Shown here: piece after piece, positions 1 to 24,814 of the stretch
How the letters are laid out: every line of letters starts with the position of its first letter
Position numbering within the stretch: the stretch's first letter is position 1
From: a virus
Taxonomy: Duplodnaviria > Heunggongvirae > Uroviricota > Caudoviricetes
Virus record (IMG/VR): IMGVR_UViG_2913167280_000001
Length of the DNA: 33,660 nt
Direction: 5' to 3' (one strand)
The notes under the pieces: model-generated
Database searches by the model: none
The model's input: only the letters and a program-made list of their open reading frames with translations
What the model was told of the DNA's origin: nothing
Program-made: the position numbers and the translations under genes

Positions 1-132
1 AAAAGTTTGATGCTCAAAGAATTAAACTTCGTAATGAATTACGTGTTCACTCTTGAGACTTGGTATTCATTTATCGTCTTGCGACGTTAAGAATCCGTAT
101 CTTCGAGTGCCCACACAGATTGTCTGATAAAT

Positions 133-145
133 TGTTAAAGAGCAG
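133..145 (-). promoter_or_regulatory. rRNA operon leader boxA antitermination element
   Basis: Minus strand reads TGCTCTTTAACAA, the rrn boxA consensus, downstream of the rrn P2 promoter. The 16S gene is not in the window. Confidence 0.8.
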
Positions 146-183
146 TTGCGACGCGGCTTTCAGCTCAGCGGCGCGGGGTGTGC

Positions 184-211
184 ATAATACGCTTTCCCGC
201 TACAGAGTCAA
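184..211 (-). promoter_or_regulatory. rRNA operon promoter P2
   Basis: Minus strand has -35 TTGACT (206-211) and -10 TATTAT (184-189) with a 16-bp spacer, matching rrn P2 architecture. Confidence 0.8.
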
Positions 212-301
212 GCATTTTTTTGCTTTTCTCTGCCGGAATTCTCAGGAGAATCCCGCTGACCCGGCGGCGTGTTTGCCGTTGTTCCGTGTCAGTGGTGGCG
301 C

Positions 302-352
302 ATTATAGGGAGTTATTCTGAGCTGACAAGAGGAAATTTAAAATAATTTATC
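302..352 (-). promoter_or_regulatory. rRNA operon promoter P1 with upstream AT-rich UP element
   Basis: Minus strand has -35 TTGTCA (324-329) and -10 TATAAT (302-307) with a 16-bp spacer, preceded by an AT-rich tract (AAATTATTTTAAATTTCCTC) typical of the rrn P1 UP element. Confidence 0.85.
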
Positions 353-407
353 GTTCGTTCAATTCTTAAGCAAAACACCTTAAAAACGACCATTTCCGGT
401 TGGAAAT

Positions 408-440
408 TAGACAAAAAGCGAGCCCCGAAGGACTCGCTTG
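408..440 (-). terminator. intrinsic terminator downstream of clpB
   Basis: GC-rich stem of about 9 bp with one mismatch, followed by a T run on the minus strand, directly after the clpB stop at 447-449. Confidence 0.6.
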
Positions 441-446
441 TCTTAT

Positions 447-3020: not shown

Positions 3021-3058
3021 AACTCCTCCCATAACGGATCAAAGTTGCTACTGGAGAT

Positions 3059-3087
3059 TAAATGAGGTCATCCCTCAATTATTCAAG
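3059..3087 (-). promoter_or_regulatory. sigma-32 heat-shock promoter for clpB
   Basis: Minus strand reads CTTGAA, then a 14-bp spacer, then CCTCATTTA, a close match to the sigma-32 consensus (CTTGAA / CCCCATNTA), about 40 bp upstream of the clpB ATG. Confidence 0.65.
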
Positions 3088-3149
3088 GTTATTGACCAGA
3101 TTAATGTGAAAAGAAAATCACGCGTACCGGATCGTCTTGATTCTTTAGG

Positions 3150-3881
3150 TTATATCAGCCAAATGAAACTTGCCATACGACCGGTGATCTTGTCGCGACG
3201 ATAAGAGAAGAAAGTCTCATTTTCCGTATATGTACAACGGTCGCCGCCGAAAATTTGCTCAACACCAACGCTCGCCAGACGCTGTCGGGCAAGCTGATAA
3301 ATATCCGCCAGATACTTATCACCATGCTGAATGAAAGCTGTACTCGCGTTGGCGTCTACTTCCATAAACGCCTCGCGAACCTCCGGCCCCACTTCAAACG
3401 CGCGTGGACCGATTGCCGGCCCCAACCAGGTAAGAATGTTTTCGGGCTTATCGGCAAAGCAGGAAACCGTCTCTTCCAGCACGCCTGCGCACAGTCCACG
3501 CCAGCCAGCATGGGCAGCCGCGACTTCCGTTCCTGCCCGATTGCAAAACAGCACAGGCAGGCAATCGGCTGTCATTACGGCACAAACCGTGCCGGGTGTG
3601 TTGCTATACGAGGCATCCGCCCGTTTTGAGGTATAAGGTTCGCCAGTAAGCTTAAGCACATCTTTACCGTGTACCTGCTCAAGCCAGACCGGTTTTGAAG
3701 GCAAATTACCCGCAGCAAAAAGCCGCTTGCGATTTTCCTCGACGTGCTCCGGGTTATCACCACAATGAGCACCGAGGTTGAGCGAGTCGTAGGGCGGCAA
3801 GCTCACGCCGCCGACACGGGTAGAGCTACAGGCCGCAACACCTTTTGGCAGCGGCCACTGCGGGACAATCAGCTTACTCAT
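3150..3881 (-). CDS. pgeF: YfiH/PgeF family protein, 243 aa
   Basis: Full-length ORF in the conserved clpB-yfiH-rluD context; 4-nt overlap with the rluD stop. Confidence 0.85.
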   Translation of the reverse strand: MSKLIVPQWPLPKGVAACSSTRVGGVSLPPYDSLNLGAHCGDNPEHVEENRKRLFAAGNLPSKPVWLEQVHGKDVLKLTGEPYTSKRADASYSNTPGTVCAVMTADCLPVLFCNRAGTEVAAAHAGWRGLCAGVLEETVSCFADKPENILTWLGPAIGPRAFEVGPEVREAFMEVDANASTAFIQHGDKYLADIYQLARQRLASVGVEQIFGGDRCTYTENETFFSYRRDKITGRMASFIWLI

Positions 3882-4858
3882 AACCAGTCCACTTCATCCT
3901 TATGCTCTTCGAAATCGGCGCGCATCACCTCAATCAGCTCCACCATATCTTGTGGAATAGGCGCATGCCATTCCATTTCAATGCCGGAGATCGGGTGATA
4001 AAGACGCAGCATGGTTGCATGAAGCGCCTGACGATCAAACTTACGCAGCGTGGAGATAAACGCTTCCGAAGCACCTTTTGGCGGACGCGGACGGCCACCA
4101 TAAACCGGATCGCCCACCAGCGGATGGGTTATATGGGCCATATGCACGCGGATCTGGTGCGTACGTCCAGTTTCCAGACGCAGCCGCAGACGCGTGTGCA
4201 CACGGAAGTGTTCCATAATGCGATAGTGAGTGACCGCCGGTTTGCCCATCGGATGCACCGCCATATGAGTTCGTTTGGTCGGATGGCGACTGATTGGCTC
4301 GTCCACCGTGCCACCAGCAGTCATATGACCAATTGCTACCGCTTCATACTCACGAGTAATTTCACGTCGTTGCAGAGATTCCACCAGGCGCGTCTGGGCT
4401 GGAACGGTTTTTGCCACAACCATGAGGCCAGTGGTGTCTTTATCCAGACGATGGACAATACCCGCACGCGGTACATCGGCAATGGGCGGATAGTAATGAA
4501 GCAACGCATTCAATACCGTGCCATCCGGGTTACCCGCGCCAGGATGTACCACCAGGTCGCGCGGTTTATTAATGACGATAATGTCTTCATCTTCATAGAC
4601 GATATCCAGCGGGATATCCTGCGGTTCAAAACGCGCTTCTTCTTCAATCTCGGCGTTGATGGCCACCAGCTCGCCACCTAATACTTTTTCTTTCGGCTTA
4701 TCACAAACTTTGCCGTTAACCAGCACGCGCTGGTTGAGGATCCATTCTTTTATTCGCGAACGTGAATAATCCGGGAACATTTCGGCTAAAGCCTGATCTA
4801 AGCGTTGACCGAGTTGGTTTTCGGACACTGTTGCAGTGAGTTCTACTCGTTGTGCCAT
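3878..4858 (-). CDS. rluD: 23S rRNA pseudouridine synthase RluD, 326 aa
   Basis: RluA-family catalytic motif HRLDKDTTG preceded by an S4-like N-terminal region; divergent from bamD as in E. coli. Confidence 0.93.
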   Translation of the reverse strand: MAQRVELTATVSENQLGQRLDQALAEMFPDYSRSRIKEWILNQRVLVNGKVCDKPKEKVLGGELVAINAEIEEEARFEPQDIPLDIVYEDEDIIVINKPRDLVVHPGAGNPDGTVLNALLHYYPPIADVPRAGIVHRLDKDTTGLMVVAKTVPAQTRLVESLQRREITREYEAVAIGHMTAGGTVDEPISRHPTKRTHMAVHPMGKPAVTHYRIMEHFRVHTRLRLRLETGRTHQIRVHMAHITHPLVGDPVYGGRPRPPKGASEAFISTLRKFDRQALHATMLRLYHPISGIEMEWHAPIPQDMVELIEVMRADFEEHKDEVDWL

Positions 4859-4992
4859 ATATACTGCTTCTTCGTTTATCGTTGGGGTTTTACGGCTTTG
4901 CCGTTTAATATAGTGTGCTATTGTAGCTGGTCTTAACCGGGAGCAGGAACAGAGAATCTCCCGTATTACATTTTGAGGAAAGTCAAAACGTC

Positions 4993-5730
4993 ATGACGCG
5001 CATGAAATATCTGGTGGCAGCCGCCACACTAAGCCTGTTTTTGGCGGGTTGCTCGGGGTCAAAGGAAGAAGTACCTGATAATCCGCCAAATGAAATTTAC
5101 GCGACTGCACAACAAAAGCTGCAGGACGGTAACTGGAGACAGGCAATAACGCAACTGGAAGCGTTAGATAATCGCTATCCGTTTGGTCCGTATTCGCAGC
5201 AGGTGCAGCTGGATCTCATCTACGCCTACTATAAAAACGCCGATCTGCCGTTAGCACAGGCTGCCATCGATCGTTTTATTCGCCTCAACCCGACCCATCC
5301 GAATATCGATTATGTCATGTACATGCGTGGCCTGACCAATATGGCGCTGGATGACAGTGCGCTGCAAGGGTTCTTTGGCGTTGACCGTAGCGATCGCGAT
5401 CCTCAACATGCTCGAGCTGCGTTTAGTGACTTTTCCAAACTGGTGCGCGGCTATCCAAACAGCCAGTACACCACTGATGCAACCAAACGTCTGGTGTTCC
5501 TGAAAGATCGTCTGGCGAAATATGAATACTCCGTTGCAGAGTACTACACCGAACGTGGCGCATGGGTTGCCGTCGTCAACCGCGTCGAAGGCATGCTGCG
5601 CGACTACCCGGATACCCAGGCTACGCGTGATGCGCTGCCGCTGATGGAAAATGCTTACCGCCAGATGCAGATGAACGCTCAGGCTGAAAAAGTCGCGAAA
5701 ATTATTGCCGCTAACAGCAGCAACACTTAA
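4993..5730 (+). CDS. bamD: outer membrane protein assembly factor BamD (lipoprotein), 245 aa
   Basis: Signal peptide ending in a lipobox (LFLAGCSG); full-length match to remembered E. coli BamD. Confidence 0.95.
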
Positions 5731-5748
5731 CAGGTGTGATATACGCAA

Positions 5749-5777
5749 AACGGCAGCCCTGGAGCTGTCGTTTTTTT
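5749..5777 (+). terminator. intrinsic terminator after bamD
   Basis: Stem AACGGCAGC / GCTGTCGTT followed by a run of 7 T. Confidence 0.7.
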
Positions 5778-5946
5778 ATTCGATTTGAACGCTAACTAAA
5801 GCGATTCAGTCGCGACTGATCCTATCAAATATGGCTCGCTTTGAGACATTCCTCAAGTAAAAAAACACCTCTTCCTGCGATTTCTCACAAAAAAACTTCG
5901 TTGACAAAAAGTGACAAAATTATGAGATTTTCATCACACATTTTGA

Positions 5947-6342
<396 letters not shown>

Positions 6343-6365
6343 TCCTTTATATTGAGTGTATCGCC

Positions 6366-6389
6366 AACGCGCCTTCGGGCGCGTTTTTT
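6366..6389 (+). terminator. intrinsic terminator after raiA
   Basis: Perfect 8-bp stem AACGCGCC / GGCGCGTT with a TTCG loop and a T run. Confidence 0.85.
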
Positions 6390-6465
6390 GTAAAGCTAAC
6401 AAATTGTTTCTATTAGCTTATTTCTTATAAACATCCACAAACTGTCCACATCAGTAATGATATAC

Positions 6466-6494: not shown

Positions 6495-7301
6495 TTATGT
6501 AGCCGAAATGGTTGTGGTGATGGTCCCCCGAAGCCGCTGCGCAGCTACCTCAAAATAATGATCACTGGTTTCTATACCAATAAATTTTCGCCCTGCTTTC
6601 AGTGCAGCCACACCCGTTGTCCCTGACCCCATAAAAGGATCAAGGACTGTTCCGCCACTATTCGCAGTTCTGACCAGTTCTGCCATAAGTTCTTCTGGTT
6701 TTCCGGTCGGGTGCATTTTCTTTGATGGGATAACCGGGAACGTCATGCAGCCGTCGAACGGTCCCGAAGGCGATTTATCTAAATGGCCTTTACTGCCCCA
6801 GACGATGTATTCGCACTGATGCCGGAAATACCCCGTATGGGGTGTTCGTGACCCCCTTCCTTTGTTCCACGCAATGATGCCGCGCCATGTGAAACCACTG
6901 GCCTGAAATGCATCAGTTAAAGCTGGCAGTTGTCGCCAGTCAGTAAATACCAGGGCATAACCGCCCGGCCTGACTGCGCGGTGTGCCTGTGCCATCCATA
7001 ATTGTGTCCAGTAAGCCCACGAACGGGCATCCATGTTTTCACCCGCAAACCCATCAAAGCGATGAAGGCTCTCGCCGTTCAGATATTTTGCGTGGCTGCC
7101 CTGGTTGGTGCGTCCGGCCTTGTGTGTCGCGCCCGAACTGTAAGGCGGGTCAGTGATTAAGGCATCAATACTTTCTGGCTCAATCAGCGGCAATATTTCC
7201 AGCGCATTCCCACGACAGAGCGTGGCATTGTCAGTCTGATAAACCTTAGTGTGTTCCGGTGTATGTGCTGGTTGGTGCTGGATTGTGATCCCCACGGTCA
7301 T
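6495..7301 (-). CDS. beta-class DNA methyltransferase (N6-adenine or N4-cytosine), 268 aa
   Basis: DPPY catalytic motif at residues 51-54 lies N-terminal to the AdoMet-binding motif DPFMGSGTT (beta-class order). ATG at 7299-7301 with a GAGGAG Shine-Dalgarno. Confidence 0.85.
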   Translation of the reverse strand: MTVGITIQHQPAHTPEHTKVYQTDNATLCRGNALEILPLIEPESIDALITDPPYSSGATHKAGRTNQGSHAKYLNGESLHRFDGFAGENMDARSWAYWTQLWMAQAHRAVRPGGYALVFTDWRQLPALTDAFQASGFTWRGIIAWNKGRGSRTPHTGYFRHQCEYIVWGSKGHLDKSPSGPFDGCMTFPVIPSKKMHPTGKPEELMAELVRTANSGGTVLDPFMGSGTTGVAALKAGRKFIGIETSDHYFEVAAQRLRGTITTTISAT

Positions 7302-11372: not shown

Positions 11373-12057
11373 GTAGTGCTTCCCTTAGTGATGAGAGATT
11401 ATCGCCGACGAACAGCATCACAGCTGTAAAAACCCACTCGGGGTGTGGGATGTTTTTTTGTATCAGCACTGCAGCCTGGCTAAGGGCTCCTTTGTAGCAA
11501 AAGCGCCACACCGGGCAAAATTTTTGCCGGAGTGCGGTCTGCTGATTAGCTATTTCCTGTAAGGCTTTATCTCTCGCATTCATGAACTGATGCAGTGATG
11601 ATGACAATGTTTCCGGTGATGTAGCGGCAGGAGTGGCTGCCTGTGCAATGGTTGCCGCCAGCGACATGCTGCGAGTGGTCTGTGTCGACAGCATTATCGG
11701 TTCTGGAAGTGATGTTGCCGGTCTGGCGGGGATTTGCATTCTGCTGATGGCCAGTGAAAGCTGGCTGGAGATCATGCGGGACATTCGTCCCACCTCCGGC
11801 AACGGAAATGCGCCTGAAAATTGCCTGGCGAGTGATAAAAACTCGCCAGCAGAAGGAGCGCAAAATAACAGCGCCACAATGTCCTTTTCCGTGTTTTCTT
11901 TCAGATAGGGTAAAAGTGCAGATACAGCATTTTCGGGGCTGAGATAACGCCCCGATGGTTTGATGTTTCCGGTATTTTCTGACCATGGATGAAGGCAAAC
12001 CACAGAGCATTTAATGTTCATGGCTGACGGGCGCAGAATTGCGTTTTCCCATTTCAT
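11344..12057 (-). CDS. hypothetical protein, 237 aa
   Basis: ATGA-coupled to the upstream fibre-chaperone gene; Ala/Ser/Thr-rich low-complexity central region; no recognisable motif. Confidence 0.4.
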   Translation of the reverse strand: MKWENAILRPSAMNIKCSVVCLHPWSENTGNIKPSGRYLSPENAVSALLPYLKENTEKDIVALLFCAPSAGEFLSLARQFSGAFPLPEVGRMSRMISSQLSLAISRMQIPARPATSLPEPIMLSTQTTRSMSLAATIAQAATPAATSPETLSSSLHQFMNARDKALQEIANQQTALRQKFCPVWRFCYKGALSQAAVLIQKNIPHPEWVFTAVMLFVGDNLSSLREALHDPDDCPCA

Positions 12058-12626
12058 TCTGACTCTCCAGCCTGAAAAGCGCGGATGTCGGCAAGATTAT
12101 TCAGACTATCCAGCACATCCTTCATCTGTCGCTGACGTCGATAAATTTCATCATTGCGGTTAACCTGCGCCTGCGCCATAGCTGTAGCCAGCCCCTCAAG
12201 CTCTGGCATCGACATCTTCACTTGCTGATTATCGGCGTCACCCCATGCCATAACGTCCCGCGCTGTGTCGGATTTTGATGCCATCACCACCGGATAAAGG
12301 CGGGTCAATGAGTCGGGGCCGGCGTTCCAGGTGCGACCGTTCCATTCGAACGTGAACGGCTGTGCTTCCTGTTCTGTGCGCCATGCCTCGATTTCCTGGC
12401 GTTTGGCGACTTTTGCTGCTTCCAGCATTTCAGGTGATACGGTGAACGGGGCAATCTTGCCCCATTTGCCGCTTTGCAGTTCCTGCCAGACGCGTTGGCC
12501 TGTCATTGCACTGTCTTCTGGTGTGGCTGTGTAGGGGACGGCTTCATCCATCCCTTCAAACAAAACTTCGCAGTCAATCGCACCGGATTCCAGATAGCGT
12601 GGATTCAGAATTTGTTGTATTTCCAT
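12054..12626 (-). CDS. putative tail fibre assembly/chaperone protein (second cassette), 190 aa
   Basis: Sits immediately downstream of tail fibre gene 2, by analogy with Mu U / P2 G; sequence differs from the first chaperone. Confidence 0.45.
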   Translation of the reverse strand: MEIQQILNPRYLESGAIDCEVLFEGMDEAVPYTATPEDSAMTGQRVWQELQSGKWGKIAPFTVSPEMLEAAKVAKRQEIEAWRTEQEAQPFTFEWNGRTWNAGPDSLTRLYPVVMASKSDTARDVMAWGDADNQQVKMSMPELEGLATAMAQAQVNRNDEIYRRQRQMKDVLDSLNNLADIRAFQAGESE

Positions 12627-12629
12627 TTT

Positions 12630-14681
12630 TTAGTTCACCCGCATAAATAAACCGACAAAGCATTCTGACGTGCCAAGTGTTGTTAAATGGCTGCCTGATA
12701 GTGCAATAAATGACCCTGCCTGTGGATATGAATTAGGAGACACAGTAATAAACTGTGGCGTGCTGGCATATGAGCCTGATGTGCTGCATTTCGCACTTAT
12801 TGTGACCGCCCCCAGTCTGGAGCCAGGTACAACTTGCCCCCTTTTCATTTTCCTGCTGCTGTCTGTGTCAGACTCACCAAAATAGGCCGCAAAAATCAGA
12901 CCTCCGACGCCCGGACTTCCCCATGCATTCCCTGTAACCGAGCGTAATAGATCTATTTGCGTCGCCGGGGACCACCACCCTTCAAGTTGAGGGCAGGCAG
13001 GATCTGCAATAAGACGGTTGTAATACAGCTCTCCACGAGCCCCCCGGTATGTAATGACTTTGTCATACACAGAGTGTGAGTTCGCATTGGCAGAAGAATA
13101 TGGTGACTCGATTTCTACTACACCATCAAATACTAATCCCGGAATTACCCTAATCGCTTCTGGATCTGTAATGACCTGTGTAACAAGATAGCGCCCTGGA
13201 GGCGTTTCCATGACCCACATAAGAAAATCCATGGGGCCATCCTTGCCTGTAAGCAGGTGGGGTGTTGAATAAAATGCTCCATAACCAAATGCGCCGGGTA
13301 ATGCCCCCCGACCTTCCGAGCGATCATAAATATCGCTTTGTAATGTCACTGTTCCGGAGTCTTCCAGCTCAAGCACCTTCCGCATATCTTCTGCTGTAGC
13401 TTGCGCCAGTAGTGAACGAGCCTTTTGCGTCACCTGGGCAAGTGATGCTTTCCCGTCCGTATTAAAGTACAGAAGGTTATCTGCCTGCGCTTTTAATTTG
13501 CTGATTGCCGTTAAAACATCGCTAAGCGGCTGTTTACCTGCCAGTGCGTTAGTGACCGTTGTTGCAAAGTTCGGGTCATTACCCAGCGCAGCTGCCAGCT
13601 CGTTCAGCGTGTCCAGAGCTTCCGGTGATGAGTCAACCAGCGCGGCAAGCAGTTTGCGGACAAACTCCGCATTGGCTATTTCAGTGCCTGCTGCGTCATC
13701 TGGCGGGGTTGGTGTTGTCGGTGCTCCGGTCAGTGCCGGGCTTTTCAGGGGAGCGCGTGCTTCAATCTGTGCGATGAGTGAAGCCTCATCAACCTTCAGA
13801 TTTTCCCAGCCAGCCAGATACCCCTGACCGCCGACGTAGCGATTGTAATAAATCTGACCATTAACACCGTAGTAAATTACTGCCTTATAGGCCCTGTCAT
13901 CGGTTGAGCTTTTAGGTTGTGGCCAGATAATTTCAATAACGCCGTTTGTCTGAATGCCTGGTACCACCACATTTGTGTCCGCAAATACGGTATAACGACC
14001 GGGTTTTGCCGTTTTTACCCAGCGGAGAAAATCGGCCTCTGTTTTAAACTCGGTCCTGTCGCCGCTGGAAAATACTTTCCCGAATCCAAACATGCCGGGA
14101 ATCGCCAGACGGCCTTCGGTGCGGTCGTAAAGGTCTGTTTGTACATCCATCGTTGCAGCAGTTTTCAACCCCAGATTGTCGCGGGATTCCTGTTGTGCTT
14201 CTTTCCCTTCTGCTGCAATTTCTGACAAACGGTTAGGGATTTTCAGCATTGATTTCAGCTCTGGATAAAGATCTATCTGCCAGCTCTGTGGAGGAACAGT
14301 AATTTGCGCAGCCTGAGCAATGCCGCTGTATATAATCGTGAAATTACGAATAAGTGACTCGCCTGTCACTTTTTGTCGAACAGGCGTTTTTATTACGCCG
14401 CATAGTGTTCCGCTGGCCTGATGGATGAGGCAAATCCAGTCATAGCTGAATGCACAGTCATCAGGAACAACCGCGCTACACACAATATTGTTCGGGCTTA
14501 ACTGGCCATAGGTCAGTTCATTCACGGTATATGTGATTTTTTCTTCCGGAACGGTATTATCTTCGTGCGTTGGTTCCCGCTCCATCAGGGCAAAAATAAT
14601 AGTGTCAGGGCGTGCAGGTAAATTACTGGCTGTGCATTCAGCAACCCACTTTTCAAATGCTTTCGTCAACAATGCGCTCAT
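12630..14681 (-). CDS. tail fibre protein 2 (P2 H / Mu S family), 683 aa
   Basis: N-terminal domain homologous to fibre 1 (PARPDT, NLIRTF/NLIRNF, WQID); central segment SPALTGAPTTP...ALVDSSPEALDTLNELAAALGNDPNFATT matches the conserved P2 H region; an internal duplicated domain (YDRxEGR...PGxFGxG, twice). Confidence 0.85.
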   Translation of the reverse strand: MSALLTKAFEKWVAECTASNLPARPDTIIFALMEREPTHEDNTVPEEKITYTVNELTYGQLSPNNIVCSAVVPDDCAFSYDWICLIHQASGTLCGVIKTPVRQKVTGESLIRNFTIIYSGIAQAAQITVPPQSWQIDLYPELKSMLKIPNRLSEIAAEGKEAQQESRDNLGLKTAATMDVQTDLYDRTEGRLAIPGMFGFGKVFSSGDRTEFKTEADFLRWVKTAKPGRYTVFADTNVVVPGIQTNGVIEIIWPQPKSSTDDRAYKAVIYYGVNGQIYYNRYVGGQGYLAGWENLKVDEASLIAQIEARAPLKSPALTGAPTTPTPPDDAAGTEIANAEFVRKLLAALVDSSPEALDTLNELAAALGNDPNFATTVTNALAGKQPLSDVLTAISKLKAQADNLLYFNTDGKASLAQVTQKARSLLAQATAEDMRKVLELEDSGTVTLQSDIYDRSEGRGALPGAFGYGAFYSTPHLLTGKDGPMDFLMWVMETPPGRYLVTQVITDPEAIRVIPGLVFDGVVEIESPYSSANANSHSVYDKVITYRGARGELYYNRLIADPACPQLEGWWSPATQIDLLRSVTGNAWGSPGVGGLIFAAYFGESDTDSSRKMKRGQVVPGSRLGAVTISAKCSTSGSYASTPQFITVSPNSYPQAGSFIALSGSHLTTLGTSECFVGLFMRVN

Positions 14682-14687
14682 TACTTC

Positions 14688-15239
14688 TTAATTCTCGCTA
14701 ATGTTCTGCGGTAATTCTGGCCATACAATCGCGGCATACGATGCTTTATCTGTAACCTGGCTGAATGTCATCTCCCGTAACGTTTTTGTATAAATACGGC
14801 AGGCTTTCAATTTCCCCCTGTCTTCGTCGCTGATTAATCCCAGCAGCAGGTCTTTTTCCCATTCGCTGGTCATGATGCTGGCCTGTTTTAACAGTGCATC
14901 ACGCTCATCTTCCGCTTTAAGTTTGTAGTCGAAGACAAATTTATCGTCGCGGTAAAACCAGTAACCAGGCACGGTAATACGGCGGTTAGCGGTAATATCA
15001 GGAACTTCAATAACACTGGCGTTACGGGGTTCAATGCCTGTCACATCCTTACCGACCCACACCACGCGCCCGTCTCCGGTGTAAACCATTTTTATGGTGT
15101 CACTGGCAAAGTTCTTCTGTTCTTCATACCAGTTTTTGCCGTCTTCCGAAAAAAGCCAGGTAACACCATATTGTTTTGTCAGCTGATATTGTTCCGCGGT
15201 TTTCGGGTTACCCGCAGTAATATTTTTTAAATGCAACAT
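14688..15239 (-). CDS. tail fibre assembly protein (first cassette), 183 aa
   Basis: Immediately downstream of fibre 1; size and C-terminal WPELP-type motif typical of the Tfa/U/G chaperone family. Confidence 0.7.
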   Translation of the reverse strand: MLHLKNITAGNPKTAEQYQLTKQYGVTWLFSEDGKNWYEEQKNFASDTIKMVYTGDGRVVWVGKDVTGIEPRNASVIEVPDITANRRITVPGYWFYRDDKFVFDYKLKAEDERDALLKQASIMTSEWEKDLLLGLISDEDRGKLKACRIYTKTLREMTFSQVTDKASYAAIVWPELPQNISEN

Positions 15240-15241
15240 TG

Positions 15242-16942
15242 TTAAACACTCGCCACGTTATACCAGGTACCGTTAATCAGTTTCTGAAGCGGTCGGTAAT
15301 ACACGCCGCCGATGTTATCTGCCGAATTACTTCCGGTTTCCTGCACATTAATACCGGATAACCCGTGGCCTGAAGGTGAGCGAAATGTCCAGGATATCTG
15401 GTTACCTCCCGGGTTGTAATACATTTCGGAACCATAACGCACATCCTGCACGCCGCCTGTTTTGGTCTGGTAACGGGCATCAAAGTTTCCGTAGTCTGAC
15501 GGTGTTACCCGCCCTGAAACATTCACTGCCCGGTTACTTTGTAACGCGCCATTCTGAAAACGGAATACGTGCTGACCATTGGCATAAACATCCAGCAGGC
15601 CGTCACCATTCTGTTTCAGGCCGGTATCGTTATCCCCGAAAGCAATTGAGTTTCCGCCCAGCGCATTCTGAACGCCGATACCCAGCGCACCATTCACCTG
15701 AGAACCGCCACCAACAGACACTTTATGCGACATGGATATTTCACCCGTCCGCAAATTAATAGTGAACGGACGCAGGGGGCCAATATCGCCGTTTTCGCCC
15801 TGATTTTCCCGGGTGGGAATAAGATGCAGGCACTCTTCAGAACGACGAAAAATCAGGCCAAAAGCTTCGTTGAAAATCCTCAGTGCATTAACACCACGGA
15901 TTTTCAGCTCCCCGGTCATGGTGTCGCCGTCGCGCTCAACAGCGTCTTTTGCTTTATCCATTGCGGCTTTTACTGCCTTTGATGTGGCGGCGCGGTCTTC
16001 TGCGTCGCTGTCGGTGGAGTTGCTGTACTGCGCAAAGCCTTTCTCCTTCAGTGTTGCGTCCGGATGATGGCGGGATTTTTCGTGCTCTGCCAGTGCATTG
16101 CTTTGTTCTTCGTCGGGTGTCTCCGGGCGCAGGTCCTGTGGGCCGTCTCCTGTCATTTTTGCAAGTGGCGCGACAAAGTGTCGGAAGCCGTTACCGTCTG
16201 TATAAGACGCATGTTCCTGGCGGGCGCAGAACGTAAAAACGGTATTCCATTCGCCGGTAACAAATCCCTGCCAGCTTGCATCAATCCAGATGGTATCCCC
16301 GACCGCAGCCGGCAGGCTGTAAGGTTCGCGCAGACTGACGCGCAGACCTCCCACATAACCCACGCCGGCGGCAACAGTAGCGGTACCGTCCTGATAGCTG
16401 ACCTGAAAACCATCCCCCAGAAAAGCGGCTTCACCGTAGTGATCAAACGCCAGCAGCCGGCGGGCCTCATCCATTCCTGCAAGGCGTGCAGTGAAATCAA
16501 TCTGCCAGACATCAGCGCTGACATCGATATGCATTGCTGCGGCTGCGCCGTCAAACTCCATGGAAAATGTGCGGATCAGGTTGTTTCCCTGCACGCCGTT
16601 CGCTGTTTTAATTTTTTGCTGACGAGGTGTGTGTGCAATCATGCAGAGCACGCCGCTTTCTTCGTTCAGCAGACCGATCCAGTTGTATTCGAAGTCGCCG
16701 ACTGTCGTGTCCAGAATGATGGAAAACGCGGTCGCGTTCGGCGACAGGAGGCCGTACTGGGTGACCGGCGCACGATACTGAATCATGGATTCATCAGGGA
16801 GTATCTCATCGCGGGGGATCTCTGCGGATTCATCCTGTCCCGGAATATATGCAAAAACAAATGTATCCGGGCGCGCAGGTTTTCCACTGATGATTTGATT
16901 TGCGCACCAGTGTTCGTACTGTTCAGTAATAATCGTGCTCAT
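15242..16942 (-). CDS. tail fibre protein 1 (P2 H / Mu S family), 566 aa
   Basis: Contains SRHHPDATLKEKGF...ATSKAVKAA and the C-terminus GDNDTGLKQNGDGLLDVYANGQHVFRFQNG...INGTWYNVASV, matching remembered P2 H conserved blocks. Confidence 0.88.
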   Translation of the reverse strand: MSTIITEQYEHWCANQIISGKPARPDTFVFAYIPGQDESAEIPRDEILPDESMIQYRAPVTQYGLLSPNATAFSIILDTTVGDFEYNWIGLLNEESGVLCMIAHTPRQQKIKTANGVQGNNLIRTFSMEFDGAAAAMHIDVSADVWQIDFTARLAGMDEARRLLAFDHYGEAAFLGDGFQVSYQDGTATVAAGVGYVGGLRVSLREPYSLPAAVGDTIWIDASWQGFVTGEWNTVFTFCARQEHASYTDGNGFRHFVAPLAKMTGDGPQDLRPETPDEEQSNALAEHEKSRHHPDATLKEKGFAQYSNSTDSDAEDRAATSKAVKAAMDKAKDAVERDGDTMTGELKIRGVNALRIFNEAFGLIFRRSEECLHLIPTRENQGENGDIGPLRPFTINLRTGEISMSHKVSVGGGSQVNGALGIGVQNALGGNSIAFGDNDTGLKQNGDGLLDVYANGQHVFRFQNGALQSNRAVNVSGRVTPSDYGNFDARYQTKTGGVQDVRYGSEMYYNPGGNQISWTFRSPSGHGLSGINVQETGSNSADNIGGVYYRPLQKLINGTWYNVASV

Positions 16943-18755: not shown

Positions 18756-19098
18756 CAAGAGATACCGTAAAAGTCAGGGGTTCAAAAAAATCTTCGGTGT
18801 GGGCGCTAATCAGCAGGCGACCAGAAAGCGGGGTTTCTTCTGTCACACTGACCGTGCCGGGTGTGATGCGCTCATCATCTTCAATCAGCAGTGTCATCTG
18901 CATCATGATGTCGGCACGAAGTGTCGGGCTTTTTTCAGCCAGCAGGCGCGTTGCCAGTCCGCTCTCAATGATGGCGTGCTGGCAGTCCTGGGCAATACTT
19001 TCCCTGTTGTTGCATAACACCGGCTCACTGGCGCTGTTCAGCGTGAGATTGCGGCCGGTGATGAGCAAATCAATGTAAAGCGGTTTATCAGTATGCAT
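18748..19098 (-). CDS. putative baseplate wedge protein (gpW/gp25-like), about 116 aa
   Basis: Internal ATG at 19096-19098 of the 162-aa track ORF gives a 116-aa product immediately after the tape measure stop; size and position match P2 gpW. The longer ORF overlaps the tape measure gene by 149 nt. Confidence 0.45.
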   Translation of the reverse strand: MHTDKPLYIDLLITGRNLTLNSASEPVLCNNRESIAQDCQHAIIESGLATRLLAEKSPTLRADIMMQMTLLIEDDERITPGTVSVTEETPLSGRLLISAHTEDFFEPLTFTVSLDD

Positions 19099-21184
19099 GC
19101 AGCTCCATCCACTCGTTAAGACGGGCAGGGGATGGATCCTGCACATTGACGTTAACCACACGACGGGAGTTGTCGATGGTGGTCTGGTTTTCGCTGTTGT
19201 TCTGCATCTCTGCCGCAATGCCGCCCGGTCCCGCACTGATGGCTTTGCCGCCGGTTAATACGGAGCCTTCGCCACTTCCTGTGCTTTCCGGTGTGTCGAT
19301 ATTGACGCCGGGGATCATGTTGAGCTTGCCTACAATCCAGCCCCATGAATCACTGAAGGACTGTTTCACCAGTTCCCAGAGGTTACTGAAAATATTCAGG
19401 ATGCCGCCCGCGAGATCCTTCAGGGCATCCAGTGGTGAATGCGTGGAAAAATAGTTAACCAGTGCATTCCAGCCGTCCTGGATTGTGTTCCATGCATTGC
19501 CGAACCATGCCCCCATACTGCCGACCATTTCAGCCACCCACTGAAAGGCGGCGGTATCCATCAGCGCGGCTTTAATCTCATCCCAGCGGGTGATCAGGAA
19601 ATAAATGCCCACGCCCAGCGCAGCCAGTGCCAGGATGATTAATGTGATGGGGCTGAAAAGTAACTGTGTTGCAATTGCGGCTCCGCTGGTGACTGCGGTG
19701 TAGATTTTCATTGCTATGCCGGCGGCACCCAGCGCAACAGAATAAAGCCAGAGTCCGGCGCGCTGTAATTTCAGCAGCGCCAGCTGAATTTTTGCTTTGA
19801 CGTTGTATGTTCCCATAGCAATGGACATGGCCAGATACAGCGCCCTGACCGTTCGGGCAACTACAGTGAATGCCCACATGGTAGCCGTCAGTGTGCGTTT
19901 CAGCAGAATGAGAATCTTCAGCGGCGCAACAGCTGCCAGCCAGACCAGCCGCAGTCCTGTCCAGACAAACTTCGCCACACCCACCATAATGTTGACAACA
20001 GCACCCACTGCGGCAATGCCCAGCAGGGCGGCAGACAGTAAACCAATGGCCCGTGTGATATTGGGATACAGACGTAACCAGGCAACAAAGGATTTACCGC
20101 CTTCGTTGCTTTTCTGGATAAACGGGTACAGAACAGGCAGCAACTGCGTGCCAATTTCGATGCGAATGCCGTTAATAATTGCAGCGGCCTGTTCCCATGG
20201 ATCAGCCATGGCCTGTGCCATTTCGACAGCCTTATCCATACCTTTGATATTGCCCAGCGTGGCGATATTCTTTTCAAGTCCGCCAATGTCTGCATTGAGT
20301 AATTTAATCATGGCCACAGCTTCATCGGAGCCAAAGGCGCTTTTCAGCAAATCGGAATCAGCCACTTTTGACAGATCACCAAATTTACCCCTGATAAGTT
20401 TCATGATCTCGACAACACTTTTCATCGTGCCGTCTTTATTCACGAAATTAAGCCCCAGCTTTTTCTGGGCGCTGCCTACTGCGGCAAGAAATGCCTTGTA
20501 CTTTGTCCCGGCCTCGCTGCCACTCATGGTGGCCTGCAGCTGTCCCAGCACGGCGAACTGTTCAGCCGCATCAATACCGGCCGCTTTTGCACTGGCACCC
20601 AGCGTGGTGAACGCCGCTGACATGTTATCGCCGGTTGTTTTAAACATTTGCACGGCGGTGGCGGTTTGCCCGGCGACCTGCTCCACCCATTTGCTTTTTC
20701 CCATGGCATCAGCCTGGTCTTTAAAGATGCCGTACATGGTGCCCATGTAGGCGGTAATGGTCTGGCTGCTGGATTTGGTTGCTGCTGCCACCGTTGCTGA
20801 TGCGGTGGTGAAGCGGGACAGCTCATCGTCAGTTAATCCGGCAATGGCTGACTGGATGTCGTAAGAAGCACGCACAAAATCCTGCGCAGCCCCGCCGTAT
20901 TCCATAGTGAAATCAACGGCGGCGCGGCTGAGTTTACGCAATCCGGACTCTGCGACGCCCAGTGATTTCACCTCACCGAGCGCCCTGTCCATTTCAATGG
21001 CTGGCATCAGTGCCCCCTGAATGGCTGCACCCACTCCCCAGAGCGCAGCGCCTCCGGTAGCAATGTCCCGAAAGGCTCCCCGACTTGTTGCAGCAAATCC
21101 CTGAACCTGTCGCCCGGCCGCACGCAACGGCCTTGTCAGGCGGTCTGTCAGTTCAAGAAGTAATTCAAGGCGCTGTTGTGACAT
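19088..21184 (-). CDS. tail tape measure protein, 698 aa
   Basis: Long Ala/Gly-rich protein with central hydrophobic segments, directly downstream of the frameshifted chaperone; its ATG overlaps the stop of the chaperone -1 frame (TAATG). Confidence 0.85.
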   Translation of the reverse strand: MSQQRLELLLELTDRLTRPLRAAGRQVQGFAATSRGAFRDIATGGAALWGVGAAIQGALMPAIEMDRALGEVKSLGVAESGLRKLSRAAVDFTMEYGGAAQDFVRASYDIQSAIAGLTDDELSRFTTASATVAAATKSSSQTITAYMGTMYGIFKDQADAMGKSKWVEQVAGQTATAVQMFKTTGDNMSAAFTTLGASAKAAGIDAAEQFAVLGQLQATMSGSEAGTKYKAFLAAVGSAQKKLGLNFVNKDGTMKSVVEIMKLIRGKFGDLSKVADSDLLKSAFGSDEAVAMIKLLNADIGGLEKNIATLGNIKGMDKAVEMAQAMADPWEQAAAIINGIRIEIGTQLLPVLYPFIQKSNEGGKSFVAWLRLYPNITRAIGLLSAALLGIAAVGAVVNIMVGVAKFVWTGLRLVWLAAVAPLKILILLKRTLTATMWAFTVVARTVRALYLAMSIAMGTYNVKAKIQLALLKLQRAGLWLYSVALGAAGIAMKIYTAVTSGAAIATQLLFSPITLIILALAALGVGIYFLITRWDEIKAALMDTAAFQWVAEMVGSMGAWFGNAWNTIQDGWNALVNYFSTHSPLDALKDLAGGILNIFSNLWELVKQSFSDSWGWIVGKLNMIPGVNIDTPESTGSGEGSVLTGGKAISAGPGGIAAEMQNNSENQTTIDNSRRVVNVNVQDPSPARLNEWMELHAY

Positions 21185-21665
21185 TACGATCCCTTAAAAG
21201 CACGGATAATGCCGTTATTGACGGCGATGCTCATATTTTCCCAGTAGTGGTTATCCAGCCAGACGGCGGCAGCCAGTGACTGCGGCGAGTCATCCTCGCC
21301 GGGCAGCCAGTGGCGGCGCAGAATCAGCATCCGGGTAAGGTCATTGCGATCAATGGCCCCCAGATGGCTTTTTATTTTTTTACGGTGATTTCCACTTCCG
21401 GCACAAACTCGTTATTCACGGCTGTTGCCAGGCTGGCTGGCATTCCTGGTTTTTCCAGCAACTGGTTCAGCAGATCGCGGTGCTCTTTAATCACGATACG
21501 GCGCAGGTAGTTTTTCAGCGGCGCGATTTTGTTATCCGGCATGAAGTCGTTCTGCAGGTCGTTGTAGGCTTTTACGGTCGGGATAAACGTCAGTTCATGC
21601 TCGCCGACCTGTAAAGTGATGGTGTTCTCTGCGGTAGTCTGGGTGTTTTTATCGTTCATCATCAT
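21184..21665 (-). CDS. tail assembly chaperone; 97-aa product (21372-21665) plus a predicted -1 frameshift fusion of about 158 aa extending to 21184
   Basis: ORF between tube and tape measure genes with an AAGGA Shine-Dalgarno. Minus-strand slippery heptamer A AAA AAA (21375-21381) abuts the zero-frame stop; the -1 frame is open for 61 codons and ends at a TAA overlapping the tape measure ATG. Confidence 0.7.
21375..21381 (-). promoter_or_regulatory. programmed -1 ribosomal frameshift slippery site (A AAA AAA)
   Basis: Seven consecutive A on the coding strand, in X XXY YYZ register, immediately 5' of the chaperone stop codon. Confidence 0.65.
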
Positions 21666-21729
21666 TTCCTTTTAAAGTCAAGAATAAGAGGGCTTAATAA
21701 GCCTGCAGGAAGGCTTATTAAGCGTAAAA

Positions 21730-22071
21730 TCAGCGCACGCCGTCGTGCTCAAGGCTGAAATGATTGCCATCCGGGCGGTTTTTAAAACGACCGCCCCATG
21801 CGCCACCAAGGGATTCCCAGTACTCGCCCAGCTCGCGGTAGGCCTCTGTGCGGGTCTGATATTCACCGTTAATAAACAGATTAAAATCCACGGCCAGCCG
21901 CTGGCAGTGCAGGCTGTTGGCAATGCCGGATCCCTTTTGTGCGTTGAGTTTTGCCTGTTCTGGCGTGCGGTACGCCTCACCGAACGTCAGGCCATAACCG
22001 CGCTGATGGGCAAACTGGATGAGTTTTCCGATCATGACGGTAAATTGTTGTTGCTTATCGGAGAGTTTCAT
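21730..22071 (-). CDS. peptidase M15-type cell-wall hydrolase (endolysin-like), 113 aa
   Basis: Zinc-ligand pattern H-x6-D (SLHCQRLAVD) plus a C-terminal D-x2-H (DGNH), as in small phage L-Ala-D-Glu peptidases and VanY-like enzymes. Confidence 0.6.
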   Translation of the reverse strand: MKLSDKQQQFTVMIGKLIQFAHQRGYGLTFGEAYRTPEQAKLNAQKGSGIANSLHCQRLAVDFNLFINGEYQTRTEAYRELGEYWESLGGAWGGRFKNRPDGNHFSLEHDGVR

Positions 22072-22180: not shown

Positions 22181-22477
22181 TTACTCCTCTTTGTTCTCTT
22201 TCTCGCCCAGCTTCCGGCGCATATGACGCAGGAAGATTTCAACAATCTGGTAACCGGCAACGCCCATTGCAGTGCCTGCGCCGGCAATGGCCAGTGGGTC
22301 AAGGTTCGGGTAACGAACCAGCAGGGCAGCGGCAGAAACACCCAGCGCGCTCCCCAGCAGGGTTCGACCCACAAACAACCGCAACGTAATCGGCTCTGCG
22401 CCAGCCAGCACCCGACTTGCGGCAGCGATTCCGCCCAGAATGCCCAGGGTGATAATGGTGCGCTCATGCTCCTGCAT
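22181..22477 (-). CDS. holin-like small membrane protein, 98 aa
   Basis: Three predicted hydrophobic segments and a highly charged C-terminal tail (RRKLGEKENKEE), a holin-like topology; sits upstream of the peptidase. Confidence 0.5.
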   Translation of the reverse strand: MQEHERTIITLGILGGIAAASRVLAGAEPITLRLFVGRTLLGSALGVSAAALLVRYPNLDPLAIAGAGTAMGVAGYQIVEIFLRHMRRKLGEKENKEE

Positions 22478-22480
22478 GGT

Positions 22481-22936
22481 TCACCCCATCAGTCCGCGCA
22501 CGTCGTTCTCTGAGAGAACGGGCACGCCGTTGATACGCACAAAGTCAGGGCTTGCCACCACGTACTTGATTTTGTGCGTGGTCAGATCTGCGCTTTCGGT
22601 GTCAATGCTTAACAGGCCGGAAAGCATCAGCTCACAACCGAAGGCTTCAACGCGGATTTCTTCAGTGCCCGTGTTGGCGTAAAACACAAAATCCATTGGC
22701 GGCAGATCGCGCCACGATCCCGCCTGAGCAGCCACTTCCCCGAGCTGGTTAAAGCTGCGGGTACTCATTTCGATTTCACCTTCGGCACTGACAGGTCCAC
22801 GCAGTTTACCGTCAGGGATGCCACGGGTTTTGGCAACGGCGCTTTCATCGCTGATGTCCAGTGAGATGCTTTTCACATGGATATCCGTTCCACCGATAAA
22901 GGTGTCAAACGCCATGCCGTTAATGCGGGTCGTCAT
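22481..22936 (-). CDS. putative tail tube protein, 151 aa
   Basis: Follows the sheath-sized gene with an ATGA overlap; size fits contractile-tail tube proteins. Called by synteny. Confidence 0.55.
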   Translation of the reverse strand: MTTRINGMAFDTFIGGTDIHVKSISLDISDESAVAKTRGIPDGKLRGPVSAEGEIEMSTRSFNQLGEVAAQAGSWRDLPPMDFVFYANTGTEEIRVEAFGCELMLSGLLSIDTESADLTTHKIKYVVASPDFVRINGVPVLSENDVRGLMG

Positions 22937-24081
22937 GCCTTTTCCTCCAGAGATTTATCCAGCTGAATGCCCACTTTGATGGTTTTAGGGCAGGCGTAAG
23001 GGCGGACAACAATGCTGATGCTGACCGTCTTTTCGTCCTGCCAGGTGATAACCACGTCGCCTTTTTTTGGGGATTTCACTTCGCCCGGAAACGTGATGCC
23101 GTTAATTTGCATGGATTTCGCCATGGCACGCAGTGGGCGGGCAAACAGCGTTTCATGTGCGGCAATGCTGCCCGGCGTGCTGTTCAGCGAGCGGTCGGCA
23201 ATCTTGGGGATGGCCATCAGCCGCACGCGGCGCGCCACCTTATCAGCAATGCGGACATGCTCAATGACGTTGTAGTCCCCGCCTTCCACTTCAAGTGTTA
23301 CACCGTCAGCCCAGTAAAGGCCGTCATAGTCGGCATACCACATGGGCACGCTGTAGCGGGCGGTTGCCAGTGCCTGCAGAGTGTCGAGATCAATTGCCTG
23401 CCCTGCGCTGTCTTTCGGGCGTTCTGTGGTTTTCAGTGCGGACAGGGGCCCGGTTGCCACACGTGCCGGACTGTCAGCAATGGTGACGGTGCTGTTACAC
23501 AGGCGACCAGCAAGAACGCCCGGTTCAAATCCAAAAATCTCCGGAACCAGCATGACCTGCGGAGCTGCAATGCCTTTCTGTAGCGCGGTCAGTTCGGCAA
23601 CGTATTCCGCCCAGGTTTTACTGTTGTCGTTGGCGGCGATGGTCAGGATGAACCAGATGCGGCGCTGATATTTATTGATGATGGTCTGACGTAACGCCTG
23701 TATGGCGTTGATGTCATCCTTCGTGCTGACCGGTTCGGTGATCACCACGCCTTCAACTGAAACAGTTTCCTGAGCCGCCAGTATGGCGTTCTGCCATGCC
23801 TGGCAGGCTGGCGTTGCTTCTTTGCCTTTGCCGGCTTCCGGCAGAACGGCAACATAGAAAAAGGCATTCTGTCCGGCATTGGTCAGCGCAGACTGAAGGA
23901 AATTCTTCAGCGGATTGGCGTTTGTTCCCAGCAGTTCATCCAGATCGCTGTTGGCATTAACCGGCAGAACCTTACCTTTGTTGTTTTGTGCATTGCCCAC
24001 AAACAGCAGCGTATTTTCCACGCCGTCCGGCGAGCTACTGAACGTGTTGTACTGTTCAATCGTGACAGATGGCCATGTCAT
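22933..24081 (-). CDS. putative tail sheath protein, about 382 aa
   Basis: Largest gene before the tube gene; start set at the ATG at 24079-24081 (AGGAG Shine-Dalgarno 7 nt upstream) rather than the track start at 24213. Not P2 FI-like by eye. Confidence 0.55.
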   Translation of the reverse strand: MTWPSVTIEQYNTFSSSPDGVENTLLFVGNAQNNKGKVLPVNANSDLDELLGTNANPLKNFLQSALTNAGQNAFFYVAVLPEAGKGKEATPACQAWQNAILAAQETVSVEGVVITEPVSTKDDINAIQALRQTIINKYQRRIWFILTIAANDNSKTWAEYVAELTALQKGIAAPQVMLVPEIFGFEPGVLAGRLCNSTVTIADSPARVATGPLSALKTTERPKDSAGQAIDLDTLQALATARYSVPMWYADYDGLYWADGVTLEVEGGDYNVIEHVRIADKVARRVRLMAIPKIADRSLNSTPGSIAAHETLFARPLRAMAKSMQINGITFPGEVKSPKKGDVVITWQDEKTVSISIVVRPYACPKTIKVGIQLDKSLEEKA

Positions 24082-24100
24082 GGTTTGTCTCCTGATTTTG

Positions 24101-24814
24101 TTATCTCGTGCCGCCGTAATGCAGGCTGCGCAGCTGCGCTTCCAGAATGCGGGCAAATTCAGCATCGCTGGCTCCCAGAAATGCGCGGGAAGGGATTTTG
24201 ATTTCCCATACACGTTTTTTCTGCTCGCCTTTCAGAATGCTGATCACCAGTCCGGCCTGCGCCATACTCATGTTTTCCATAATCCATTTCAGGGAAGGTT
24301 TTCTGCGCCCCCTGCGCCCGGTCTTTTTGCTGACTGCGCCGACGGGGGCGCGAAAGCCCAGAGAAAGAAGGCGTTCTGCCTGCCGTCGTGTGGCGGGACG
24401 GGTGCGCATGGCTTCGCTGTCCCGGCGTTTTGTGGCGCGGCCTTTGATGGTTGCGCCGTGCTGTTGCACCCACGCGACCGCCCCACCATGAGAGCCGGTG
24501 TTGTAATCCCCTTTTTTGAAGAAAAGGCGGACACTTTTCCCGCTGCCGTCAACCCTGATGGCCAGCAGTTTCGGCAGTCCCAGCAGCATTTTGTTTTTAT
24601 ACCTGCCGCTGGCTTTATCCGGTCTTTTTCGTGGTGCCCAGGCTGCCCCCTCCGGTGTTCGCTGTGCTTTCACATTGCGTCGTGCAGCCGGTATCAGGCC
24701 GTATTTCGCAATGCGAACCAGCAGCCTTTTGGCCTTTGCCGGCGGAAGTTCTGCCTCTCTGATGGCGCGACGAACCTGCCGGAGTTGTGACTCGTTAATC
24801 ACGGGGCGCGTCAT
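24101..24814 (-). CDS. putative virion morphogenesis / tail completion protein, 237 aa
   Basis: Basic protein between the head completion gene and the sheath gene; called by position. Confidence 0.4.
   Translation of the reverse strand: MTRPVINESQLRQVRRAIREAELPPAKAKRLLVRIAKYGLIPAARRNVKAQRTPEGAAWAPRKRPDKASGRYKNKMLLGLPKLLAIRVDGSGKSVRLFFKKGDYNTGSHGGAVAWVQQHGATIKGRATKRRDSEAMRTRPATRRQAERLLSLGFRAPVGAVSKKTGRRGRRKPSLKWIMENMSMAQAGLVISILKGEQKKRVWEIKIPSRAFLGASDAEFARILEAQLRSLHYGGTR

Follow-up and report, generated by a model that had tools for sequence, protein, structure and literature searches.

A probable programmed -1 ribosomal frameshift at A AAA AAA joins the tail assembly chaperone of an HP1-like prophage to a DUF6890 domain

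Frameshifting of the lambda G/GT type is widely conserved in the tail assembly chaperones of long-tailed phages, and in lambda the short product exceeds the long one by about 30:1 (PMC5009743). The lambda gene lies directly upstream of the tape measure gene and gives a short product and a rare -1 fusion with a common N-terminal domain. Slippage takes place close to the end of its short open reading frame (ORF); the common domain is expected to bind the tape measure and the extension to recruit the tube subunit (PMC5009743), and the T part binds the tube protein gpV (reviewed in PMC5009743). The E/E+E' pair of P2 has been established experimentally (PMC3091744), and the GenBank record of P2 gives E+E' as a joined -1 frameshift coding sequence (CDS). 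Here we describe a locus of this kind in the IMG/VR virus record IMGVR_UViG_2913167280_000001, a stretch of 33,660 nucleotides (nt) that we refer to as the window and that contains an HP1-like (Peduoviridae) prophage of Escherichia coli. In its tail module, a programmed -1 ribosomal frameshift on A AAA AAA very probably yields a short chaperone and a rare fusion of that chaperone to a DUF6890 domain.

The chaperone gene occupies 21372..21665 on the minus strand, which also carries every other tail-module feature given below. Its ORF opens with three consecutive ATGs and encodes 97 amino acids from the first of them (21665). PGAP starts the gene at the third (21659), giving 95 amino acids, and this choice, together with a better Shine-Dalgarno spacing, makes the third ATG the more likely start. 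The ORF ends ...ACC GTA AAA AAA TAA, with the stop codon at 21374..21372. The run of seven A at 21375..21381 reads in the zero frame as the slippery heptamer A AAA AAA, of the form X XXY YYZ, and abuts the stop, just as the first-pass annotation of this DNA had reported. That annotation also described the -1 frame beyond the run as open for 61 codons. The frame is indeed open, but its length is 63 codons, from the last A of the run (21375) to 21187 (IKSHLGAIDRNDLTRMLILRRHWLPGEDDSPQSLAAAVWLDNHYWENMSIAVNNGIIRAFKGS; IKSHLG...AFKGS), beginning with the codon ATA that follows a one-base backward slip. Upstream, the -1 frame is already open from 12 codons before the slip site, or 10 before the first codon of the heptamer, so that the two frames overlap. 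Slippage would produce a fusion of 160 amino acids (158 from the PGAP start) with ...EITVKKIKSHLGAID... and ITVKKIKSHLGAID as its junction peptides.

The first 18 codons of the extension form a linker (21322..21375; IKSHLGAIDRNDLTRMLI) whose sole start codon is ATG 21330, and the DUF6890 domain follows at 21190..21321. The extension terminates at a TAA (21184..21186) whose last A is also the first base of the tape measure ATG (21184..21182). This one-base gene overlap, TAATG, agrees with the earlier proposal that the extension would end at the tape measure start; among 124 relatives the same junction takes the form ATGA in 60 and TAATG in 39. The likely Shine-Dalgarno sequence of the tape measure gene, AAGGGA (21190..21195; duplex -3.8 kcal/mol), is embedded in the conserved FKG codons of the extension. 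The tape measure gene itself (19088..21184, 698 amino acids) is identified by Pfam PhageMin_Tail (E 7.5e-29) and by PGAP as a "phage tail tape measure protein", and its product is the presumed client of the chaperone. The chaperone gene was originally placed between the tube and tape measure genes. It does lie directly upstream of the tape measure gene, the position typical of G/GT, but it is not directly beside the tube gene: holin and endolysin genes intervene.

Profile searches assigned the two frames to two different families. The zero-frame protein matches Pfam Phage_TAC_10 (PF10963) over its full length (E 6e-26, 90.8 bits against a gathering cut-off of 25.7), and this upstream domain is predicted to have a tail assembly chaperone fold. 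The -1 stretch matches Pfam DUF6890 (PF21830) from position 1 to 44 of 44 (E 5e-23, 81.1 bits, cut-off 23.6). In PHROGs both halves are of "unknown function", the extension corresponding to PHROG 7050 (E 8e-29). NCBIfam contained no model for either the chaperone half or the extension half, and sequence and profile searches of the PDB gave no meaningful match, the sole hits being helical ATP synthase b chains at E ~0.002. Two natural in-frame fusions of Phage_TAC_10 with DUF6890 were found (P0005 and P0018, the latter at L319 636-1037). Each is a single ORF produced by a deletion that removed the slip region; one source is a metagenome scaffold with the tape measure gene directly downstream, and the other is a Salmonella Montevideo genome.

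Like lambda G, the window gene lies directly upstream of the tape measure gene and has its slip site close to the end of its short ORF; a short product and a rare -1 fusion with a common N-terminal domain are predicted, with the same expected division of roles. The two systems differ in the heptamer, which is G GGA AAG in lambda and A AAA AAA abutting the stop in the window, and there is no detectable sequence similarity between them. Moreover, the window phage has a contractile tail, and holin and endolysin genes stand between its tube and chaperone genes. P2 too belongs to the Peduoviridae and has the head-gene families GPO, P2 capsid, GPL, gpR and gpS in common with the window. The products are similar in size (chaperone, 91 amino acids in P2 and 95-97 in the window; fusion, 142 and a predicted 158-160), the end of the extension overlaps the tape measure start in both, and in both Pfam splits the pair into a chaperone family and a family for the -1 part. 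However, the families are Phage_TAC_7 and Phage_P2_GpE in P2 but Phage_TAC_10 and DUF6890 in the window, and P2 slips at T TTT TTG, which precedes the stop by six codons, whereas the window heptamer is A AAA AAA, directly at the stop. The extension had no match to either of the P2 Pfam families even at E<=10, and when the P2 and window pairs were compared with hhalign only a 9-residue HW.P motif aligned (E 0.18).

In function, the window pair would be analogous to lambda G/GT and P2 E/E+E', with the DUF6890 domain as the counterpart of lambda T and P2 E'. Sequence homology to P2 E/E' was not detected, so that the role given to DUF6890 is deduced from its position and by analogy. True homologues are found in the HP1 group: HP1 orf26 together with the unannotated 190 nt before orf27, and the corresponding regions of HP2, K139, phiO18P, ESSI-2 and Pseudomonas phi3, are 35-52% identical to the window pair over both frames. 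These phages have the same order of tube, lysis, chaperone and tape measure genes, carry the heptamer at the equivalent codon and share the -1 extension. They differ in their hosts, and the phi3 clade differs in its heptamer, A AAA AAG, and in a stop that lies seven codons beyond it.

To describe the variation among relatives we used two surveys, the first of 128 distinct loci from genomes and viral contigs, and the second of 76 distinct loci that included HP1, HP2, K139, Vibrio, Pasteurella, Aeromonas and Pseudomonas phi3. Combined, they provide 176 distinct slip-site contexts. Relative to the chaperone, the frame of DUF6890 is -1 in 126 of the 128 loci of the first survey and in all 76 of the second. 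A AAA AA[A/C] followed immediately by a stop (TAA, TGA or TAG) occurs at the same codon in 124 of the 128; the exceptions are two loci with the single-tRNA slip motif A AAG, one with a 1-nt indel in the linker and one with a broken chaperone gene. L091 (IMG/VR UViG 2551306561_000001) has an intact heptamer and, in the -1 frame, an intact beginning of the linker, after which a 1-base indel shifts the remainder of DUF6890 into the zero frame beyond a TGA stop; this is a sequencing error or the mark of a decaying prophage. Of the 124 regular loci, 123 have an open -1 frame of 62-64 codons and the remaining one has 60.

Comparison with the chaperone pairs of related phages had been suggested as a check on the proposed frameshift, and it showed that both the heptamer and the -1 extension are conserved. 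An in-frame A6N heptamer (A AAA AAA, AAC or AAG) is present at the homologous codon in 175 of the 176 contexts. A AAA AA[A/C] with an adjacent stop accounts for 145 of them, with all three stop codons in use, and another 30, all from the phi3 clade (L156, L239-L276), have A AAA AAG and a stop seven codons beyond it. None of seven divergent relatives from E. coli and phages has lost the heptamer, the stop or the open -1 frame. The arrangement is maintained across Enterobacterales, Pasteurellaceae, Vibrio, Aeromonas and Pseudomonas at protein identities of 30-50%.

These data bear on the idea that the A run and the open -1 frame are a functionless coincidence or a relic, and that the short chaperone alone matters. 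Runs of seven or more A are common in the window (16 on both strands), and open -1 frames after stop codons are common where genes overlap and the next gene uses that frame. Judged from its sequence, an A7 run is unremarkable by itself and the excess over chance lies in its conservation, which extends from Enterobacterales to Pseudomonas. The base before the two lysine codons is A in 124 of 124 relatives, though the amino acid encoded there varies, and the first lysine codon is AAA in all 124. Invariance at these synonymous positions indicates selection on the heptamer itself, and the -1 frame is under purifying selection as well. We consider coincidence hardly credible. A second in-frame A AAA AAA does occur in the window, at 23068 in the sheath gene (22933-24213), 42 codons before the sheath stop. 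The -1 frame there shuts after 25 codons, still within the gene; this heptamer is most likely a chance occurrence, and it illustrates that an A7 run alone is not diagnostic.

The extension varies among relatives in the manner of a protein-coding sequence. Entropies at the three codon positions of the -1 frame are 0.75/0.59/1.47 over the whole extension and 0.89/0.82/1.56 over its first 18 codons, the same pattern as that of the chaperone gene in its own frame (0.82/0.63/1.46). Conserved linker residues are I8 (121 of 124), N11 (100 of 124) and R4 (99 of 124). To the extent that sequence can reveal it, the slip site is where protein-coding constraint in the -1 frame sets in.

This constraint is difficult to reconcile with an independent small gene, in which ATG 21330 would start a 48-amino-acid DUF6890 protein and no fusion would be made. 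The first-pass annotation held that the ORF track misses a second product, and this was half true: the track contains a 48-amino-acid ORF at 21184..21330, which PGAP calls as a separate "DUF6890 family protein", as do several phage records with similar CDSs. The ATG exists, and it precedes the start of the Pfam DUF6890 model by three residues. However, it has no Shine-Dalgarno sequence (duplex +0.7 kcal/mol), and the linker codons 5' of it are constrained as coding in the -1 frame. Relatives both close and distant, including most of the seven divergent ones, have I or Y in place of the methionine at which PGAP starts the protein. Among 124 relatives, 14 lack any start codon in the -1 ORF; in the others the distance from the stop to the first ATG, GTG or TTG varies between 5 and 170 nt. 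These codons have practically no anti-Shine-Dalgarno pairing in front of them, the mean being -1.76 kcal/mol, compared with -4.35 kcal/mol for the tape measure starts. The PGAP "DUF6890 family protein" is 29, 30, 46, 48 or 51 amino acids long in different prophages, as would be expected of a gene caller seeking a nonexistent start. An independent gene is therefore very unlikely. Two other routes to the extension were excluded: stop-codon readthrough by the fact that the extension is out of the zero frame, and termination-reinitiation by the lack of a start near the stop together with the coding character of the linker.

The proposal that the locus uses the conserved chaperone frameshift of long-tailed phages, by the mechanism of lambda G/GT and P2 E/E+E', is supported by the comparison: the gene position, the heptamer, the -1 ORF that lacks a conserved start and a Shine-Dalgarno sequence, the coding signal and the predicted fold all point to it. 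In this mechanism most ribosomes would terminate at TAA 21374..21372 and release the short chaperone of 95-97 amino acids. A small fraction would slip one base back on A AAA AAA, where both lysine tRNAs could re-pair perfectly, very likely while the slowly decoded stop codon is in or beside the A site. Tandem -1 slippage of the two tRNAs, or slippage in the P and E sites with the stop in the A site, would be the likeliest route, and either would give the same protein. The slipped ribosomes would read ATA and continue through the 63 codons to make a chaperone-DUF6890 fusion of 158-160 amino acids. By analogy with lambda G/GT, both forms would coat the tape measure protein through their common N-terminal domain. 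The DUF6890 domain of the rare long form would recruit the tube protein of the HP1 Orf24 type and start tube polymerisation, and neither form would be expected in the finished virion. We infer that the slippage is ribosomal, that its efficiency is low and, from lambda, which partners the two forms bind.

The same fusion could in principle be made mainly by transcriptional slippage, in which RNA polymerase adds one A to the A7 run and the resulting A8 messenger is translated normally. A homopolymeric A run is a substrate for such slippage, and from A7 the product, VKK-IKS, is identical to the ribosomal one, so that the sequence cannot discriminate between the two. Efficient slippage of bacterial RNA polymerase has been described for runs of 9 A or T, and the known sites in Thermus dnaX and in insertion sequence (IS) elements have about 9 or more (PMC5009743); the window run, with 7, is shorter than these. 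In 149 of the 176 contexts the run is only 6 long (A6C or A6G), and what is conserved is the zero-frame register X XXY YYZ, which is relevant to the re-pairing of tRNAs but not to the polymerase. Because most relatives have A6 and efficient slippage needs about 9, transcriptional slippage is unlikely as the main route.

Ribosomal slippage on A AAA AAN by tRNA-Lys is familiar in enterobacteria from dnaX and from insA-insB' of IS1. The slip site of IS1 is A AAA AAC. That of dnaX is A AAA AAG, and IS1 decoding likewise uses frameshifting (PMC5009743). The genes are unrelated to the window pair, and dnaX depends on an upstream Shine-Dalgarno sequence and a strong downstream hairpin, whereas no such conserved pair of stimulators was found for the chaperone frameshift. 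We searched for both kinds of element. The signal of an upstream Shine-Dalgarno-like stimulator was inseparable from the conserved L-E/D-I codons, and no universally conserved RNA structure was found downstream among the relatives.

In the window, an irregular hairpin, the putative stimulator, is predicted at 21326..21369 on the minus strand. It starts 6 nt after the heptamer and includes an 8-base-pair stem, CAUCUGGG/CCCGGAUG, from 9 nt after it. At a predicted -19.5 kcal/mol, it falls within the top 8% by stability of 45-nt windows in the gene pair. In 25 representative sequences, the segment downstream of the heptamer had a median stability rank of only 0.20, and stems of at least 8 base pairs at the right distance were present in 54 of 124 relatives, compared with 3 and 32 in two control segments. 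Other lineages have different hairpins at the same distance from the heptamer, including a group of 44 sequences with covarying pairs. The ESSI-2-like group (members include L006, L007, L025-L027, L054, L060, L063, L139, L143 and L150) carries the hairpin CGAGUCCR...YGGACUCG, with 8 base pairs beginning 9 nt after the heptamer, which is absent from the window lineage. Its pairs covary at position 8 (G-C/A-U) and position 7 (C-G/A-U), and it is built from CGA, GGA and CUC codons. These codons are rare in E. coli. From this pattern, the hairpin looks like a real frameshift stimulator in that subgroup. For the chaperone frameshift in general, the alignments suggest that a 3' stimulator is possible, and lineage-specific at best.

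Several observations weigh against a programmed ribosomal frameshift and its comparison with P2. The window hairpin is not significantly more stable than dinucleotide shuffles of its sequence (z -1.48), close relatives have changes that break its stem, and an Rfam search of the locus matched no frameshift element. The hhalign comparison with P2 E/E' was not significant (E 0.18 and 0.61), with a single P2 sequence as the template, since the relatives of P2 E+E' found in viral contigs were all near-identical copies. Both natural fusions come from deletions; they may be hard-wired long forms, or they may belong to defective prophages. Finally, E. coli ribosomes slip only weakly on A AAA AAA by comparison with A AAA AAG (PMC5009743). 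The last point has another side: A_AAA_AAA and A_AAA_AAC are known slip sites, if weak ones (PMC5009743), and their weakness fits the low ratio of long to short product that chaperones need, about 1:30 in lambda.

A weak heptamer abutting a stop codon, found in about 80% of the distinct relatives (145/176), is a small twist on the known mechanism. Codons that are slow to decode in the A site, stops included, promote slippage (PMC5009743). We tentatively suggest, while regarding it as somewhat doubtful, that the adjacent stop is itself the stimulator of the -1 shift, the lysine or asparagine tRNAs slipping while the release factor is slow to act. The stop is adjacent in the 145 contexts just mentioned, and in the only clade with the strong heptamer, A AAA AAG, it is at a distance of seven codons. 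However, the phi3 clade represents a single evolutionary event, and the position of the stop is partly fixed by the conserved I/L at the first residue of the extension. If such a "shifty stop" operates, the ratio of short to long product would be set by the competition of termination with slippage, and it may vary with the activity of the release factor or with how the host is growing.

The mechanism is well known; what the window adds is its place in an HP1-like tail module, where PGAP, Pfam and PHROGs treat the second half of the chaperone fusion as a protein of its own with unknown function. No joined CDS is present in the feature tables of eight HP1-type phage records (ESSI-2, ESSI2_ev239, YenM_324, HP1, 1.202.O, K139, phi3 and yong1), and the two ORFs are separate entries in a 2024 description of an HP1-like Aeromonas phage (PMC11292799). 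Our literature search found no paper that mentions DUF6890 and none that ties HP1 or K139 to this frameshift, though the 2004 survey of Xu, Hendrix and Duda may already include HP1. The main gain is thus a correction of annotation, and the biology is ordinary. Pfam DUF6890 and PHROG 7050 can be interpreted as the C-terminal domain that Phage_TAC_10 chaperones gain by frameshifting. Entries of 29-51 amino acids named "DUF6890 family protein", of which bacterial genomes contain many, would then be fragments of a ribosomal-slippage fusion CDS rather than independent genes. The same reading would explain the ~190 nt between chaperone and tape measure that are unannotated or hypothetical in HP1, K139, ESSI-2 and other HP1-like phages. 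In addition, the approximately 175 natural A AAA AAN variants, with or without an adjacent stop, are a convenient set for work on the tuning of -1 frameshifting by stop codons.

In E. coli SC418 (NZ_LR778147.1) there is a prophage with 100% identity to the window, and a 551-base-pair query spanning the chaperone-extension region had matches in 42 of 5426 complete E. coli genomes. The left end of the window (1-6400) is host chromosome, with host genes at 447-5730 (clpB 447-3032, yfiH 3150-3881, rluD 3878-4858 and bamD 4993-5730). The first phage gene is a DNA methylase (6495-7301), which places the prophage junction just past bamD. The head genes are of the P2 type (terminase, GPO scaffold, P2 capsid, GPL, gpR and gpS). 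The tail module is of the HP1 type, with a DUF2586 sheath, an HP1 Orf24 tube, DUF2590, baseplate J and HP1 ORF34. Its genes are ordered sheath, tube, holin, endolysin, chaperone and tape measure. The tube gene (22481..22936; Pfam Phage_HP1_Orf24, E 1e-50) encodes the presumed binding partner of the DUF6890 domain, by analogy with the binding of gpV by lambda T. The holin (22181-22477) and M15 endolysin (21730-22071) genes stand between tube and chaperone, as they do in phage HP1.

The gap of 64 nt between the endolysin stop and the chaperone start (21666-21729) leaves no room for spanin genes in the window prophage. Rz-like spanin genes are found at this place in HP1, ESSI-2, ESSI2_ev239, YenM_324 and E. 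coli EC22. Within the gap, at 21692-21723 on the minus strand, is a terminator-like perfect inverted repeat of 13 base pairs, GCTTAATAAGCC TTCCTGCA GGCTTATTAAGC, with a weak T-rich tail. It may separate the transcription of the lysis genes from that of the tail genes, or attenuate it. Farther along the minus strand are two tail fibre genes (12630-14681 and 15242-16942) that have a tail-collar N-terminal domain in common. Each is followed downstream by a small gene on the same strand, DUF4376 (12054-12626) in the case of the 12630-14681 fibre and Caudo_TAP (14688-15239) in the case of the 15242-16942 fibre, and the two fibres may constitute a dual receptor-binding set.

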